Virus record (IMG/VR): IMGVR_UViG_2778261299_000011
Source of the DNA: a virus
Lineage: Duplodnaviria > Heunggongvirae > Uroviricota > Caudoviricetes
Strand: one strand, 5' to 3'
DNA: 42,122 bases
Numbering within the stretch: the first letter of the stretch is position 1; the number at the start of each line of letters is the position of its first letter. Of this stretch, positions 5,681 to 20,547 are shown piece after piece. A model generated the notes under the pieces. That model was not told where the DNA came from, did not search any database, and was given only the letters and a program-made list of their open reading frames with translations. The position numbers and the translations under genes were made by a program.

Positions 5681-6462
5681 GCTGCCACCTTCTGCTCAGT
5701 GGCTTTCTGTTTCAGGAATCCAAGAGCTTTCACTGCTTCGGCCTGTGTCAGTTCCGACGATGCGCGAATGTCGCGGCGAAATATCTGGGAACAGAGCGGC
5801 AATAAGTCGTCATCCCATGTTTTGTCCAGGGCAATCAGCAGAGTGTTAATCTCCTGCATGGTTTCATCGTTAACCGGAGTGATGTCGCGTTCCGGCTGAC
5901 GTTCTGCAGTGTATGCGGTATTTTCGACAATGCGCTCGGCTTCATCCTTGTCATAGATACCAGCAAATCCGAAGGCCAGACGGGCACACTGAATCATGGC
6001 TTTATGACGTAACATCCGTTTGGGATGCGACTGCCACGGTCCGGTGATTTCTCTGCCTTCGCGGGTTTTGAATGGTTCGCGGCGGCATTCATCCATCCAC
6101 TCGGTAACGCAGATCGGATGATTGCGGTCCTTGCGGTAAATCCGGCATGTGCAGGATTCATTGTCCTGCTCAAAGTCCATACCATCAAACTGCTGGTTTT
6201 CATTGATGATGCGGGACCAGCCATCAACGCCCACCACCGGAACGATGCCGTTCTGCTTATCAGGGAAGGCGTAAATTTCTTTCGTCCACGGATTAAGGCC
6301 GTACTGGTTGGCGACGATCAACAATGCGATGAACTGCGCATCGCTGGCATCACCTTTAAATGCCGTCTGGCGAAGAGTGGTGATCAGTTCCTGTGGGTCG
6401 ACAGAATCCATGCCGACACGTTCAGCCAGCTTCCCTGCCAGCGTTGCGAGTGCTGTACTCAT
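5677..6462 (-). CDS. bet: Single-strand annealing protein Bet (Red beta)
   Basis: 261 aa; [66 protein letters not shown]; overlaps exo start as in lambda. Confidence 0.95.
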
Positions 6463-6982: not shown

Positions 6983-7115
6983 TTTTTGGGACTCCTGGCT
7001 GATTAAGTATGTCGATAAGGCGTTTCCATCCGTCACGTAATTTACGGGTGATTCGTTCAAGTAAAGATTCGGAAGGGCAGCCAGCAACAGGCCACCCTGC
7101 AATGGCATATTGCAT
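6951..7115 (-). CDS. cIII: CIII (FtsH inhibitor, stabilises CII)
   Basis: Hand-translated [54 protein letters not shown] (54 aa) matches lambda CIII; the ORF track merged this with another frame. Confidence 0.85.
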   Translation of the reverse strand: MQYAIAGWPVAGCPSESLLERITRKLRDGWKRLIDILNQPGVPKNGSNTYGYPD

Positions 7116-7187
7116 GGTGTGCTCCTTATTTATACATAACGAAAAACGACTCGAGTGAAGCGTTATTGGTATGCGGTAACGCCGCGC

Positions 7188-15783: not shown

Positions 15784-15858
15784 GGGTCAGTCGTATAAAG
15801 GTCATTACGGAAGGCTGTTAACCTTCTTATCGTGGTTCGAGTCCACGCTGTCCCGCCA
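15784..15858 (+). tRNA. tRNA-Asn(GTT)-like, phage-encoded, somewhat divergent
   Basis: Hand-folded cloverleaf: acceptor GGGTCAG/CTGTCCC (one mismatch), anticodon stem GAAGG/CCTTC with loop CTGTTAA, T-arm CGTGG-TTCGAGT-CCACG, 3' GCCA; D-arm weak. Confidence 0.5.
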
Positions 15859-15863
15859 AATAT

Positions 15864-15939
15864 GCTGGTTTAGCTCCAATGGTAGAGCAGTCGCCTTGTA
15901 AGCGAATGGGTAGCGGTTCAAGTCCGTTAACCAGCACCA
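15864..15939 (+). tRNA. tRNA-Thr(TGT)-like, phage-encoded
   Basis: Hand-folded: acceptor GCTGGTT/AACCAGC, D-arm GCTC-CAATGGTA-GAGC, anticodon loop CTTGTAA, T-arm AGCGG-TTCAAGT-CCGTT, 3' ACCA; overall resembles E. coli tRNA-Thr. Confidence 0.65.
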
Positions 15940-16181: not shown

Positions 16182-16505
16182 ATGAAGATGCCAGAAAAAC
16201 ATGACCTGTTAGCCGCCATTCTCGCGGCAAAGGAACAAGGCATCGGGGCAATCCTTGCGTTTGCAATGGCGTACCTTCGCGGCAGATATAATGGCGGTGC
16301 GTTTACAAAAACAGTAATCGACGCAACGATGTGCGCCATTATCGCCTGGTTCATTCGTGACCTTCTCGACTTCGCCGGACTAAGTAGCAATCTCGCTTAT
16401 ATAACGAGCGTGTTCATCGGCTACATCGGTACTGACTCGATTGGTTCGCTTATCAAACGCTTCGCTGCTAAAAAAGCCGGAGTAGAAGATGGTGGAAATC
16501 AATAA
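16182..16505 (+). CDS. S: Holin S (dual-start MKM motif)
   Basis: 107 aa; [64 protein letters not shown] matches lambda S. Confidence 0.95.
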
Positions 16506-16965
16506 TCAACGTAAGGCGTTCCTCGATATGCTGGCGTGGTCGGAGGGAACTGATAACGGACGGCAGAAAACCAGAAATCATGGTTATGACGTCATTGTAG
16601 GCGGAGAGCTATTCACTGATTACTCTGATCACCCTCGCAAACTTGTCACGCTAAACCTCAAACTCAAATCAACAGCAGCCGGTCGCTACCAGCTTCTTTC
16701 ACGCTGGTGGGATGCCTACCGCAAGCAACTTGGCCTGAAAGATTTTTCTCCAGAAAGCCAGGATGCTGTAGCGCTGCAGCAGATTAAAGAGCGTGGCGCT
16801 TTACCGATGATTGACCGCGGCGATATTCGTCAGGCAATCGACCGTTGCAGCAATATCTGGGCTTCGTTGCCGGGGGCTGGTTACGGTCAGTATGAACATA
16901 GAATCGGTGACCTGATTGCCCGATTTAAAGAAGCGGGTGGGGTGGTAAATGAAGCTGAGATATAA
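16489..16965 (+). CDS. R: Endolysin R (lytic transglycosylase)
   Basis: 158 aa; [56 protein letters not shown] matches lambda R. Confidence 0.95.
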
Positions 16966-17341
16966 GCTGGTTATTGTTGCCTTCTTTGTTACCGTCATCG
17001 GTTCTTTTATCTGGTCTGCCGGGCATTACTACAGCAAATATCAGCACGAAAAGGAGCGTGCTGATGAGGCTGTACGAAATGCTGAATCTGCAACAGCCAT
17101 TACCAGTAACGTCCTGCAATCTCTGCAAATCATCAATACAGTTATAGAGGCTAACCAGCATGCAAAACAGCAGATCGCACTGGAGTCACAGAGAACCCAG
17201 GAAGATATCAAAGTGGCTGTTTCGGGTGATGATTGCGCTGTTCGTATCGTTCCTTCTGGCGCAGTTAAGCGGTTGCACGAATACGCGAACGGTATACGTG
17301 TCGGTGCCGGTCGTTCCGTTACCAGCCAGTCTGACGGATGA
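16949..17341 (+). CDS. Rz: i-spanin (Rz-like, non-lambda sequence type)
   Basis: N-terminal TM segment (LVIVAFFVTVIGSFIW) then coiled-coil-like region; position after R. Confidence 0.7.
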   Translation: MKLRYKLVIVAFFVTVIGSFIWSAGHYYSKYQHEKERADEAVRNAESATAITSNVLQSLQIINTVIEANQHAKQQIALESQRTQEDIKVAVSGDDCAVRIVPSGAVKRLHEYANGIRVGAGRSVTSQSDG

Positions 17342-17504
17342 AACACCCCAGCCAGATTTACCCGACCCGTTTACGTGGGGAGCTAGCCTTAACCTGAATG
17401 TTGCGTTGTTGTCAGCGTTAGCACAGTGCAACAGGGATAAGGCTGATATCAGGGCTTTTGAGAAAAACAGGGCAGCACAAACCAATGGCACGATTAAACG
17501 TTAA
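17229..17504 (+). CDS. Rz1: o-spanin (Rz1-like lipoprotein) in +1 frame, overlapping and extending beyond Rz
   Basis: MIALFVSFLLAQLSGC lipobox-containing signal then Pro-rich mature region; start codon uncertain (ATG 17229 or GTG 17226). Confidence 0.5.
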   Translation: MIALFVSFLLAQLSGCTNTRTVYVSVPVVPLPASLTDETPQPDLPDPFTWGASLNLNVALLSALAQCNRDKADIRAFEKNRAAQTNGTIKR

Positions 17505-17670
17505 AGTTATCCCACCAGACAGCGAAACGATGAACGGGATTTTTGCAGAGATTGAACGTAAATATGCGCATCAGCCGATGACGCCAAAAGTTATCGATGA
17601 AATGCAACGCGAAGCGGCGCGCCTTGTACGGCGAGCGACAAACACGAAGGTTACGTTCGTTCGGGACTGA
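17485..17670 (+). CDS. Hypothetical small protein (61 aa from MARLNVKV)
   Basis: ORF downstream of spanins; start uncertain. Confidence 0.35.
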   Translation: MARLNVKVIPPDSETMNGIFAEIERKYAHQPMTPKVIDEMQREAARLVRRATNTKVTFVRD

Positions 17671-17802
17671 CATTACAGAAGCTCCTTTGATAAGGGGCTT
17701 CGATAATGTCACTAAGAGGAAAAATTCATGGCAAAACCGGACTGGGAGGCCATCGAAACGGCGTACCAGTGGCGGGTGAAGTATAGGGCATCTATTTATT
17801 CA

Positions 17803-18351
17803 TCATTTGAAAAAAGAGTTGTCCGGATAGGTTTCAATAACGGTTATGTTTGAAAGACGCGAGGGGTTAACCGTGAACTCATTTTCACCAAGATAACGAC
17901 TGTGGGCATTGGGGCCAGCTAATATAGAACAGGCTGGAGCTTCAGCTCTTAACAGCAAACCTGGTGATTTGTATGCATTCAATCCACGACCAAACTTCTC
18001 GGCGACTGAAATGTCCGTTGTCCAGCAAAATCCAATGAGTCCTTTATCGAACCTGTCTTTATTTTCCCCCCGATAAAGTACAAGGCTGTCACCATCATAT
18101 GTTGGCAATAAGAGCGTTAATAGTTTGAGGAGAATTGAGTCGTCGTTGATCTTTTCACGTATAAAGGCCCCAGACTCAACCCATTGACTATGGAATGAAT
18201 TTTTCATGGCAATTGATACTGGCTTTGCGTTATCGATGCTTTTGATAAACTCAACCCATCTGTTCCGACTGTGAATGTAATCAAGAAATTTCCTCTCATC
18301 GGACACCTTCGATTGAGGGCGGTTATAAGCTGCGAAATCTTCTAACTTCAT
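17803..18351 (-). CDS. Orphan hypothetical protein (182 aa) on opposite strand between lysis and packaging modules
   Basis: Clean ORF from ATG at 18351 with GAGGAAATT SD; AT-richer than flanks; the 314-aa ORF-track version is an antisense read-through into terS and is rejected upstream of 18351. Confidence 0.6.
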   Translation of the reverse strand: MKLEDFAAYNRPQSKVSDERKFLDYIHSRNRWVEFIKSIDNAKPVSIAMKNSFHSQWVESGAFIREKINDDSILLKLLTLLLPTYDGDSLVLYRGENKDRFDKGLIGFCWTTDISVAEKFGRGLNAYKSPGLLLRAEAPACSILAGPNAHSRYLGENEFTVNPSRLSNITVIETYPDNSFFK

Positions 18352-18370
18352 AATTTCCTCAGGTATATCA

Positions 18371-18922
18371 ATGGCACTCACCGACAAGCAAGAAATGTTC
18401 TGTCGCGAGTACCTCATCGATTTAAACGCCACGCAAGCGGCTATTCGGGCGGGGTACAGCGCAAAGACAGCTAACCGTACCGCATCCGAAAACCTGTCAA
18501 AACCTGACATACAATTCAGAATCGCTGAACTGAAAGCGCAACGCAATGATCTTGTTGGTATTAATGCAGAATATGTACTTAATCGCCTTATTGAAATCGA
18601 CCAGATGGATGTGCTCGACATTCTCCTGCAAAACGGTGAGCTAAAGCCCATTAAAGACTGGCCTAAGGTATGGCGCACAACGCTATCAGGAATGGATGTC
18701 GTGGAGATGGTATCCGCAGATAGCGCCGCACTTCTGAAGAAAATCAAATGGCCTGATAAGGTTAAAAACCTTGAGTTGCTTGGGCGTCATGTTTCTGTTC
18801 AGGCGTTTAAAGACAACGTCAAAAATGAAGTGACTGGCGCTGATGGAGGACCAGTCAGAACAGAAATTACCAACTTAACGCCGGAGCAGGCTGCAGAGGC
18901 GTATAGAAAAATGATGGGCTAA
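18371..18922 (+). CDS. Terminase small subunit
   Basis: N-terminus [34 protein letters not shown] typical of small-terminase HTH domains; directly precedes large terminase. Confidence 0.8.
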
Positions 18923-18924
18923 GT

Positions 18925-20547
18925 ATGCCGTTACCATTCCCCTTCGATTTTAAACATCCTGATTACCAGATGGTTTTTGAATGGCGGATGGAACGCCTAC
19001 AGCGCATTCGCCAGAATCCTGAAATATTGCCCGTATTGAAGCAGTTTTACCGAACCAATCCGGCTCAGTTCATCATCGACTGGGGCATGACAACGGACCC
19101 GCGTAATATTGATTATGGCCTGCCGGTGACCATTCCGTTTTTACTCTTCCCTAAGCAGGAGGAGTGGATCCACTGGATTATGGAACGCTGGGGCAATCGG
19201 GAGAATGGTATTACCGAAAAATCCCGTGAAATGGGGCTCAGTTGGACCGCGATCGGACTGGCCTGCTCGCTTTGTCTCTTCAACAAAGAAATGGTTATCG
19301 GTTTCGGCTCCCGTAAAGAGGAATACGTCGACAGCACTGGTGACCCGAAAGCATTGTTCTGGAAGGCACGCAAGTTCGTGGAAACGCTACCTGTAGAGTT
19401 TCGCGGTTCGTGGAGTGAGAAGAAGCACGCGCCATATATGCGTGTTGAGTTTCCTGAAACTGGTGCCGTTATCAAAGGCGAGGCTGGCGATAATATTGGT
19501 CGTGGTGACCGTACCACGCTTTATCTGGTTGATGAGGCTGCATTCCTTCAGCGTCCTCTGCTGATTGATGCGGCGTTGTCACAAACGACGCGTTGCCGTA
19601 TCGACCTGAGTTCAGTTAACGGCATGGCTAACCCGTTCGCTCAGAAGCGTCATGGCGGGAAGATACCGGTATTCACATTCCACTGGCGGGATGATCCTCG
19701 CAAGGATGAAGAGTGGTATCGCAGGGAATGCGAGAAAATCGATAATCCGGTGGTGGTGGCACAGGAACTTGATCTGAACTACAGCGCATCAGCGGAAGGC
19801 GTTCTGATTCCATCCGAATGGGTACAGGCTGCCGTTGATGCGCATATCAAACTGGGTATCCAGCCAACAGGCAAACGACTTGGCGCGATGGATGTCGCCG
19901 ACGAAGGCAGGGACAAAAATGCCTTTTCCACCCGTCATGGCTTCCTCCTGGAAAATGTGCGGGAATGGTCCGGTGTGGGCAGCGACATTTATCAGTCCGT
20001 CGAGAAGGTTTTCGGCTTTTGCGAACAGGACAACCTCGAAGAGTTTCGCTTTGACGAGGACGGGCTGGGCGCTGGCGTTCGCGGCGATGCACGCGCTATC
20101 AACGAACTGCGTAACGCTGCGCGTCGACCGTCAATACTTGCCACACCGTTTCGAGGTAGTGGCGCGGTATTTGATCCGGATGATGAAGCTGTTCGCGGGG
20201 ACAACGGGCAAGCCGCACGTCTGAACAAGGACTTCTTCGCTAACGCCAAAGCCCAGAGCTGGTGGCGGTTACGTAAACTTTTTCAGAATACCTGGCGCGC
20301 CGTGGTTGAAGGTATGGCTTACAACCCGGACGAAATCATCTCAATCAGCAGTAGCATGGCACTCAAAGATAAACTCATCATCGAGCTTTCGCAGCCGACC
20401 TATTCCATTAATGGTGTGGGAAAAATCGTTATTGATAAACAGCCTGATGGAACCCGATCGCCAAACCTTGCCGACTCGGTGATGATCAACTATGCCCCAA
20501 TGAATTCAGCCCTGAACATCTGGGAACTGCTAGGGAGACAGGCCTGA
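18925..20547 (+). CDS. Terminase large subunit (ATPase/nuclease)
   Basis: 540 aa; Walker-B-like [10 protein letters not shown]; position between TerS and portal. Confidence 0.85.

Follow-up and report, generated by a model that had tools for sequence, protein, structure and literature searches.

A mobile cargo gene beside terS in Escherichia coli prophages encodes a putative stand-alone ADP-ribosyltransferase

Introduction

What is the role of a single gene that lies between the lysis and packaging genes of a temperate phage and is read against both? This question is raised by a 42,122-nucleotide stretch of DNA from a Caudoviricetes virus (IMG/VR record IMGVR_UViG_2778261299_000011), referred to below as the window. 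On its minus strand, positions 17803-18351 hold an open reading frame (ORF) of 182 codons and a stop codon, with the ATG at 18351, antisense to the flanking plus-strand late genes. An earlier sequence-only reading had described this ORF as an orphan gene and had noticed three short motifs reminiscent of the active site of ADP-ribosyltransferases (ARTs).

ADP-ribosylation recurs as a weapon in the conflict between phages and bacteria, with DarT, CmdT, AcrIF11, and the Alt and Mod proteins of phage T4 as examples. Members of the ART superfamily have a catalytic triad made up of an Arg or His from strand 1, a Ser or Tyr from strand 2, and a Glu from strand 5. Having examined the predicted structure, conservation, distribution, and genomic surroundings of the gene, we lean, on balance, toward a stand-alone, NAD+-dependent ART of the Arg-Ser-Glu (R-S-E) type that travels as mobile cargo and would be used in conflict among phages, hosts, and mobile elements. 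We place somewhat more confidence in the narrower statement that the product is an ART-fold enzyme using NAD+.

Results

Predicted fold and active site

AlphaFold2, supplied with an alignment of 28 sequences, returned a confident model of the 182-residue protein, with a predicted local distance difference test (pLDDT) score of 91.1 and a predicted template modeling (pTM) score of 0.83. The N-terminal domain (residues 1-88; 18088..18351, minus strand) is all-helical, with helices at residues 4-9, 18-28, 32-40, 47-68, and 71-81, and with conserved positions at W32, W57, G61, R65, D71, L78, P83, Y85, and G87. The C-terminal part (residues 89-182; 17806..18087, minus strand) is an alpha/beta core with an ART-like fold and the split beta-sheet that characterizes the superfamily. 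Its strands are b1 (residues 90-97), b2 (109-111), b3 (131-138), b4 (143-145), b5 (158-161), and b6 (167-175). The model places R94 on b1, T111 on b2, and E156-x-E158 at the entry to b5; both the modeled strands and the conservation of these residues agree with the triad positions of the ART superfamily. The earlier concern, that the distance from the arginine to the TTD sequence is shorter than in classical ARTs, is accounted for by the model, in which b1 and b2 are connected by a single short helix (residues 98-102).

In a Foldseek search against the Protein Data Bank (PDB), the leading matches were TreX (E=0.024, probability 0.96), Tpt1, Vis, and cholera toxin. Further structural neighbors were exotoxin A, C3, Tse6, LT, Tre1, Tne2, HopU1, pertussis toxin, Scabin, iota-like toxin, RhsP2, and Arr, together with AcrIF11, and the longest structural alignments were those with transferases. 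Against the BFVD collection of viral models, the same search returned uncharacterized phage proteins and, lower down, DarT and ART-PolyVal proteins. Neither an unrelated predicted fold nor a confident match to another family came up. The suggestion of an ART is thus supported by a confident model in which triad-like residues, the most conserved of the family, fall on b1, b2, and b5. Of the two kinds of check that had been proposed against ART families, the structural one succeeded, as Foldseek retrieved neighbors with the ART fold, while the profile one linked the protein to no named ART family.

Conservation was counted in an alignment of 171 family members. R94, G107, and W110 are present in all 171 sequences and G95 in 169; position 111 is Thr or Ser in 170 (T in 125, S in 45), and A117 and L134 are kept in 165 and 163 members, respectively. 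Near the C terminus, E156 is found in 162 of 167 sequences, position 158 of these 167 is Glu in 139 and Gln in 21 (approximately 13% Gln), and 109 of about 167 members have an aromatic residue or His at position 153. Constraint extends to the N-terminal half, as seen from W32 (146 members), W57 (160), G61 (154), R65 (158), D71 (164), P83 (156), and Y85 (159).

The three motifs that had first drawn attention lie where they had been placed (LYRGE at residues 92-96, WTTD at 110-113, and ENEFT at 156-160), and all three coincide with the most conserved positions. They did not hold up in every letter: only the Trp of WTTD is invariant, with Thr or Ser following it and the rest variable, and of the two glutamates of ENE the first is invariant and the second is not. 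Y93-R94-G95-E96 (18064..18075, minus strand) forms the aromatic-Arg motif on b1, in which R94 is the predicted NAD-binding arginine. W110-T111-T112 (18016..18024, minus strand), with its invariant Trp, Thr or Ser, and variable third residue, is the counterpart of the Ser-Thr-Ser (STS) motif on b2. Y153-L-G-E156-N-E158 (17878..17895, minus strand), supported by both conservation and the model, resembles the ADP-ribosylating toxin turn-turn (ARTT) loop in its aromatic-x-G-E-x-E sequence leading into b5. Its Y153-x-G-E156-x-E158 spacing is that of the ARTT loops of iota toxin (Y375..E378-x-E380) and C3 (F209..Q212-x-E214), a correspondence that we take as a lead only. Either E156 or E158 may be the catalytic glutamate.

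A large family without functional annotation

The family proved to be large. A profile search of 1.84 billion cluster representatives recovered 1011 homologs at E<=1e-3 and 673 at E<=1e-10, and the homologs listed from this search are mostly 160-250 amino acids (aa) long. They occur in Klebsiella, Pantoea, Methylomonas, and many metagenomes, and 34 IMG/VR viral contigs encode one. Among 5426 complete E. coli genomes, 91 carry the locus at full length. The protein is annotated in E. coli RM8082 and REL606 as WP_000762846.1 ("hypothetical protein"), with 100% identity by tblastn. The region around the gene (window 17700-18450) is found at 99.9-100% DNA identity in BL21 and its derivatives, in E. 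coli C, and in enteropathogenic E. coli (EPEC) E2348/69; the gene is intact in BL21, REL606, and E2348/69, and it is missing from K-12. A tblastn search of 50,697 deposited phage genomes gave no match to the protein. The known sources of the gene are confined to prophages and uncultivated viral contigs.

With 1011 homologous representatives at E<=1e-3, the gene is no orphan in the sense of lacking relatives. The term remains apt for its annotation, since every source calls the protein hypothetical and PHROG 30882, which matches it end to end (E=1e-95), has no assigned function. Searches of a literature library by accession and by topic found no description of the protein.

An exchangeable cargo slot beside terS

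The loci in which the gene is linked to terS are those of a Pantoea prophage, of E. coli contigs, and of IMG/VR L029, L030, and L033-L036. At every one of them, the ART-like gene is divergent from a Terminase_2-type terS, the two start codons being 18-20 bp apart, over a range of protein identities from 100% down to 43%. The intergenic spacer of the window is 19 bp (18352..18370); its length is kept among the loci but its sequence is not. The identities of the ART-like protein and TerS are uncoupled (84% and 71%, respectively, in L029; 45% and 71% in L033), which implies recombination between the two genes, at their junction. Faster evolution of the ART-like gene than of terS was considered and rejected because the identities are uncoupled in both directions.

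In E. coli prophages whose terS is 97-98% identical to that of the window, the ART-like gene is absent and other opposite-strand genes occupy the same slot, likewise beginning approximately 20 bp from terS. In strain S1 the slot equivalent to window 17768-18361 encodes a 72-aa protein (L051 2769-2987, minus strand), and in Rb-23 it encodes a pair of 81-aa and 301-aa proteins ("LPO_1073/Vpar_1526 family"; L052 1832-2979, minus strand). No Pfam or PADLOC match was found for any of these alternative cargo genes. The breakpoints of the slot fall at approximately window 17767 on the left and at approximately 18361/18371 on the right, at the start of terS (query 1062-1072).

The left junction at approximately 17767 falls within a 41-aa ORF (MAKPDWEAIETAYQ...; 17728..17853, plus strand), which matches the terS starts of Klebsiella phages GZ7 and Chronis at the nucleotide level and is what is left of the 5' end of another terS-like gene that has been displaced. 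An intact 249-aa version of that gene is present in E. coli FP4, followed by a PBSX-type TerL. The 41-aa ORF, which has a strong ribosome-binding site and extends into the 3' end of the ART-like gene, is a recombination scar where the present packaging module joined the lysis module. The right-hand junction coincides with the first approximately 80 nucleotides of terS (window 18371-18450, plus strand; ATGGCACTCACCGACAARCAAGAAATGTTCTGTCGCGAGTACCTCATCGATTTRAACGCCACGCAAGCGGC), whose nucleotides are near-invariant, synonymous sites included, even though the TerS proteins are only 59-78% identical. This stretch may be a recombination anchor for the exchange of modules or cargo, or a regulatory element common to the divergent cargo genes. 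The same stretch also occurs in phage P22 (L049 2501-2581), as a degenerate unannotated remnant between ORF201 and ORF80.

The guanine-plus-cytosine (GC) content over the ART-like gene is 0.41-0.45, as against 0.47-0.57 in the flanks. As is typical of a moron, the gene is present in some and absent from other near-identical prophages, with sharp junctions. Because sibling prophages hold unrelated genes in this place, the breakpoints are sharp, a terS remnant marks the left junction, and GC content is lowered, we conclude that the ART-like gene is a discrete piece of cargo and that its slot is open to exchange.

Two observations concern anti-defense genes and their labels in related loci. In the Pantoea prophage, a gene of the Acb2/Tad1-hairpin family (L005 6638-6919, minus strand), a family of anti-CBASS and anti-Thoeris sponges, adjoins the ART-like homolog on the side of the lysis cassette, so the region between lysis genes and terS also collects counter-defense genes. 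In the prophage remnant of REL606, a truncated DUF1073 portal gene (L001 8848-9606) is labeled "anti-CBASS protein Acb1 family protein" by RefSeq. In RM8082 the intact counterpart is annotated "DUF1073 domain-containing protein," and in the Pantoea locus the corresponding place after terS and terL is taken by a Phage_portal_3 gene; the Acb1 label looks like an annotation artifact.

Other genomic contexts and the search for a partner gene

Homologs also reside in quite different surroundings. In a chromosomal integron, one of them (P0038; 47% identity across the core) makes up a cassette by itself, with no other ORF between the flanking attC sites (L011, approximately 5817-6423). That integron (L011 3749-12321) has an IntI-type integrase followed by at least 14 attC repeats (CCTAACAATTC...GGTGTTAGG) between small ORFs, almost all without a Pfam match. 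Another homolog (P0033) is found downstream of an integrase, within an extended array of small genes that all share one strand, a third (L031, 57% identity) between a P4-like integrase and an AlpA-like regulator, and a fourth (P0045) in an integrase island beside a Schlafen/AlbA_2 protein. In loci L040-L048, the homolog is found upstream of a ParA-like gene and lysis genes. A low-GC homolog (L039 4866-5459, plus strand) is inserted between tail genes, on their strand, in an alphaproteobacterial tail operon resembling those of gene transfer agents (GTAs), so the family enters quite different phage lineages at different positions.

A conserved partner or immunity gene was looked for and none was found; the neighbors in the window are terS and the terS remnant, and the upstream neighbors in three contexts that were compared are not homologous to each other. 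Nor was there a Pfam-annotated macrodomain or ADP-ribosylhydrolase neighbor in five gene-called loci, and the ORFs of three further loci were read without a domain scan. A toxin-antitoxin arrangement of the Tre1-Tri1, TreTu-TriTu, DarTG, ParST, or CmdTAC type was rejected in view of the unrelated upstream neighbors and the one-gene integron cassette. Given that same cassette and the non-homologous neighbors, the ART-like protein evidently works, and is tolerated, alone.

Gene start, neighboring genes and expression signals

The 182-aa coding sequence (17803..18351 including the stop codon, minus strand) is identical to that of WP_000762846.1 and is the one matched by PHROG 30882. Its ATG is preceded by a Shine-Dalgarno sequence, GAGGA (18356..18360, minus strand), with a spacer of 4-5 nucleotides. 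ORF and Shine-Dalgarno sequence, both read directly from the DNA, bear out the earlier description of a 182-aa opposite-strand gene between the lysis genes and terS. A mechanical ORF list also offered a 314-aa version with a TTG start; it was rejected, and the 182-aa reading is the right one, because all homologs begin at M-K/N-L-E-D.

On the lysis side, the plus-strand late genes are those for the holin (16182-16505), lysozyme (16489-16965), and Rz and Rz1 (16949-17504), followed directly by a 61-aa ORF (17485-17670, plus strand) between Rz1 and the ART-like gene. This small ORF is kept alongside the lysis cassette in many E. coli prophages (WP_000113283/285) and has no family match, and a strong hairpin (17670-17709) comes right after its stop codon. 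On the other side, terS (18371..18922, plus strand), annotated as such and assigned to the Terminase_2 type in the Pantoea locus, is the constant divergent neighbor, and it is followed by terL (18925-20547, plus strand) and then the portal gene. The comparison with lambda bor, which lies downstream of Rz on the opposite strand, stands as an analogy of position only.

Late transcripts would cross the ART-like gene in antisense to reach terS, and the gene would accordingly need a promoter of its own inside or beside terS. Candidates picked by hand (TTGCTT or TTGTTT inside terS, with a -10 element in the spacer) were dropped as poor and inconsistent between loci. RNA folding of 17670-17805 (minus strand) revealed a terminator-like hairpin followed by UUUUG at 17737..17775 (minus strand; z=-3.1), 30-70 nucleotides past the stop codon, which a simple terminator scan did not call. 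This hairpin is a weak candidate for a terminator and may mark the end of a transcription unit. An Rfam scan found no match in or near the gene.

Elsewhere in the window, two phage tRNA genes (Asn-GTT and Thr-TGT; 15784-15939, plus strand) lie between a Q-like antiterminator gene and the holin gene, and the early region contains a lambda cIII thermoregulator element (Rfam RF01804, 88.5 bits; 7070-7128, minus strand).

Discussion

The closest parallels to the protein are R-S-E mono-ARTs with an N-terminal helical region, such as C3 exoenzymes, Vis, the catalytic domains of iota toxin and VIP2, ART2.2, HopU1, and Tre1. In common with these, it has predicted helices followed by a split beta-sheet core, with an aromatic-Arg motif on b1, a Ser or Thr on b2 followed by a helix with A..F, and an aromatic-x-G-E-x-E sequence leading into b5. 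It differs from them in having no detectable sequence-profile similarity, a much shorter connection between b1 and b2 (17 residues from Arg to Thr), a Trp for the first Ser of STS, and an invariant first Glu with Glu or Gln as the second. It also lacks a secretion signal, a B component, and an immunity partner. The Rhs and type VI secretion toxins TreX and TreTu have a compact ART core of similar size; these, however, form the C-terminal toxin domains of Rhs proteins and have an immunity gene (TriX or TriTu) next to them, whereas the protein studied here is free-standing, with its own N-terminal helical domain and no conserved neighbor.

Tpt1/KptA RNA 2'-phosphotransferase is likewise a protein of about 180 aa with two lobes, the C-terminal one being an NAD+-binding ART lobe. 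Tpt1 has a winged-helix N-lobe and an Arg-His-Arg-Arg catalytic tetrad, whereas the present protein has an all-helical N-domain, an R-[ST]-E set, and no match to the Tpt1 model of Pfam. ModA, ModB, and Alt of T4 and AcrIF11 resemble what the model predicts here, a small phage-borne NAD+-dependent modifier. By contrast with them, the gene studied here, whose carriers are temperate phages and chromosomal elements, runs antisense to the late operon instead of belonging to an early or anti-defense operon. Among morons, the best positional parallels are lambda bor and other genes of the late region, each a single opposite-strand gene after the lysis cassette that is present or absent among near-identical prophages. 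Lambda Bor is an outer-membrane lipoprotein, and the ART-like protein is related to it neither in sequence nor in fold.

Several results weigh against an R-S-E-type ART with a role in conflict. No family of Pfam or NCBIfam was matched by the protein of the window even at E<=10, a test that covered the curated ART families, including any for C3/VIP2-type toxins, ModA (PF26816), DarT, Arr, Tpt1, and DraT. A Pfam scan of 88 diverse family members found no family and no fused domain, the best result being one DRAT match at E=0.11. PDB sequence-profile searches with two alignments gave only spurious matches (UDP-GlcNAc pyrophosphorylase and protein A repeats). Comparison by hhalign with T4 ModA, ModB, and a small ModA/B alignment gave non-significant probabilities of 0.6-1.2%; these alignments did place LYRG over the LYRG of ModB and the LWRG of ModA, and W-T..A..F.xGL over the S-A-S..A..FAsGL of ModA, which is a lead at most. 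A database search for further ModA relatives yielded only 3 proteins, too few for a useful profile.

The active site is atypical as well. An invariant Trp stands where STS has its first Ser, and the invariant Glu is the first of E-x-E, with the second varying between Glu and Gln. Classical R-S-E enzymes show the opposite, their invariant catalytic Glu being the second of [QE]-x-E, and a whole subgroup from high-GC phages has E-S-Q, the reverse of the classical Q-x-E variant. On the side of function, PADLOC-DB 2.0 contained no defense-protein match (the sole hit being a chance-level RT_UG26 at E=0.024), known defense genes were sought among the neighbors and alternative cargo with none convincing, a scan of window 17300-18900 for sigma-70-like promoters found none for the gene, and no result separates defense from counter-defense. 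That ARTs occur in phages and mobile elements is unsurprising in itself, and the evidence for the fold is moderate. What is new is a large family within this well-known superfamily that is absent from the Pfam, NCBIfam, and PADLOC libraries, and that combines several unusual features: a compact core, W-[ST] instead of S-T-S, an E-x-[EQ] whose first Glu is invariant, and a conserved helical N-domain.

Other roles for the protein have to be weighed against this background. It might be a counter-defense or host-takeover ART that modifies an immune or housekeeping component of the host and does not protect the lysogen, in the way that AcrIF11 ADP-ribosylates Cas8f, and Alt, ModA, and ModB of T4 modify RNA polymerase and translation factors. 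The Acb2/Tad1-type neighbor in Pantoea fits such a role, as do the homologs of the high-GC phage group and of the GTA-like tail module, which share the strand of the phage genes around them. But at all terS-linked loci the gene runs against the late operon and is a long way from the early promoters, a poor site for a product required immediately after injection; the chromosomal integron cassette and the island integrase as a neighbor are more typical of host-side cargo, and there is no sequence similarity to a known Acr, Alt, or Mod family. We regard counter-defense or host takeover as doubtful, though a serious rival. Less probable still, and in our view unlikely, is an NAD+ glycohydrolase comparable to Tse6, Tne2, or TNT that would act by depleting NAD+; it might, for instance, be an effector of abortive infection with the N-domain as its gate. 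NAD+ depletion is a common output of defense systems, and a second Glu that varies to Gln at position 158 would matter less for hydrolysis than for transfer. Yet the layout of invariant aromatic-Arg, [ST] on b2, and E-x-E is a transferase signature, transferases provide the longest structural alignments, and no sensor domain or partner is recognizable.

The Gln found at the canonical catalytic position 158 in 21 of 167 sequences would also suit an ART fold without catalytic activity, which would work through binding, for example as a decoy or by capturing nucleotides or ADP-ribose. PARP13 and RCD1 are inactive ART folds, but inactive ART domains usually lose their active-site residues, whereas R94, Thr or Ser at 111, and E156 are near-absolute over 171 diverse sequences, as expected of active sites; we consider inertness very unlikely. 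The homolog that forms an integron cassette by itself brings to mind an antibiotic-modifying ART like Arr, which travels as such a cassette. No Arr model was matched in Pfam or NCBIfam, however, Arr is not known to use an R-S-E triad, most contexts of the family are phages instead of resistance regions, and antibiotic-sensitive laboratory strains carry the gene, all of which makes this role highly improbable. Least probable of all is a toxin against eukaryotic cells, comparable to those whose genes (stx and the LT-II genes) are located in the late regions of lambdoid prophages. It is true that this gene, too, sits in the late region of lambdoid prophage DNA, that EPEC E2348/69 carries it, and that cholera toxin, LT, and pertussis toxin are structural neighbors. 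But no B subunit or secretion partner lies nearby, no translocation domain was found by Pfam, and reading of the sequence revealed no hydrophobic N-terminal leader (no signal-peptide predictor was run). Moreover, the gene is antisense to late transcription, unlike stx, and its carriers include B, C, and environmental strains, Methylomonas, and integrons.

We return, then, to a stand-alone R-S-E-type ART carried as mobile cargo. The protein would be a cytoplasmic enzyme of the ART superfamily, with R94 on b1, T111 on b2, E156-x-E158 at b5, and the conserved helical N-domain packed before the core. It would bind NAD+, release nicotinamide, and transfer the ADP-ribose to a macromolecule, possibly a protein arginine, by analogy with other E-x-E enzymes, or perhaps a nucleic acid instead. 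Its gene behaves as a self-contained moron in an exchangeable slot; because this slot diverges from terS and is read against late transcription, the gene is probably expressed independently of the lytic late operon, and expression in the lysogen is plausible. It probably plays a part in the conflict that sets phages, other mobile elements, and the host against each other. Here we slightly favor exclusion or defense encoded by the prophage and expressed in the lysogen over counter-defense, on account of the antisense moron position, the cargo contexts in islands and integrons, and the lack of a partner gene.

A more specific proposal, which we put forward as tentative, is that of a so far unrecognized effector of immunity or exclusion that consists of one protein. 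It would be an ART with an atypical E-x-[EQ] site that regulates itself, the N-domain serving as a sensor or gate, and prophages, satellites, and integrons would spread it through the dedicated slot beside terS. In BL21 and REL606 it would be active, and upon infection it would modify a component of incoming phages or of the host's apparatus for translation or transcription.

If our reading is true, it would add a large family, of 1011 representatives at E<=1e-3 and with 88 members tested without a Pfam match, to the ARTs of conflict, and one that does without a partner gene and has an unusual active-site pattern. The slot upstream of a Terminase_2 terS is a cargo hotspot in which unrelated genes alternate, and it is a place to look for further conflict genes. 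The gene is intact in BL21 and REL606, the most used strains for protein expression and experimental evolution, and in EPEC E2348/69, which makes knock-outs and phage panels easy.

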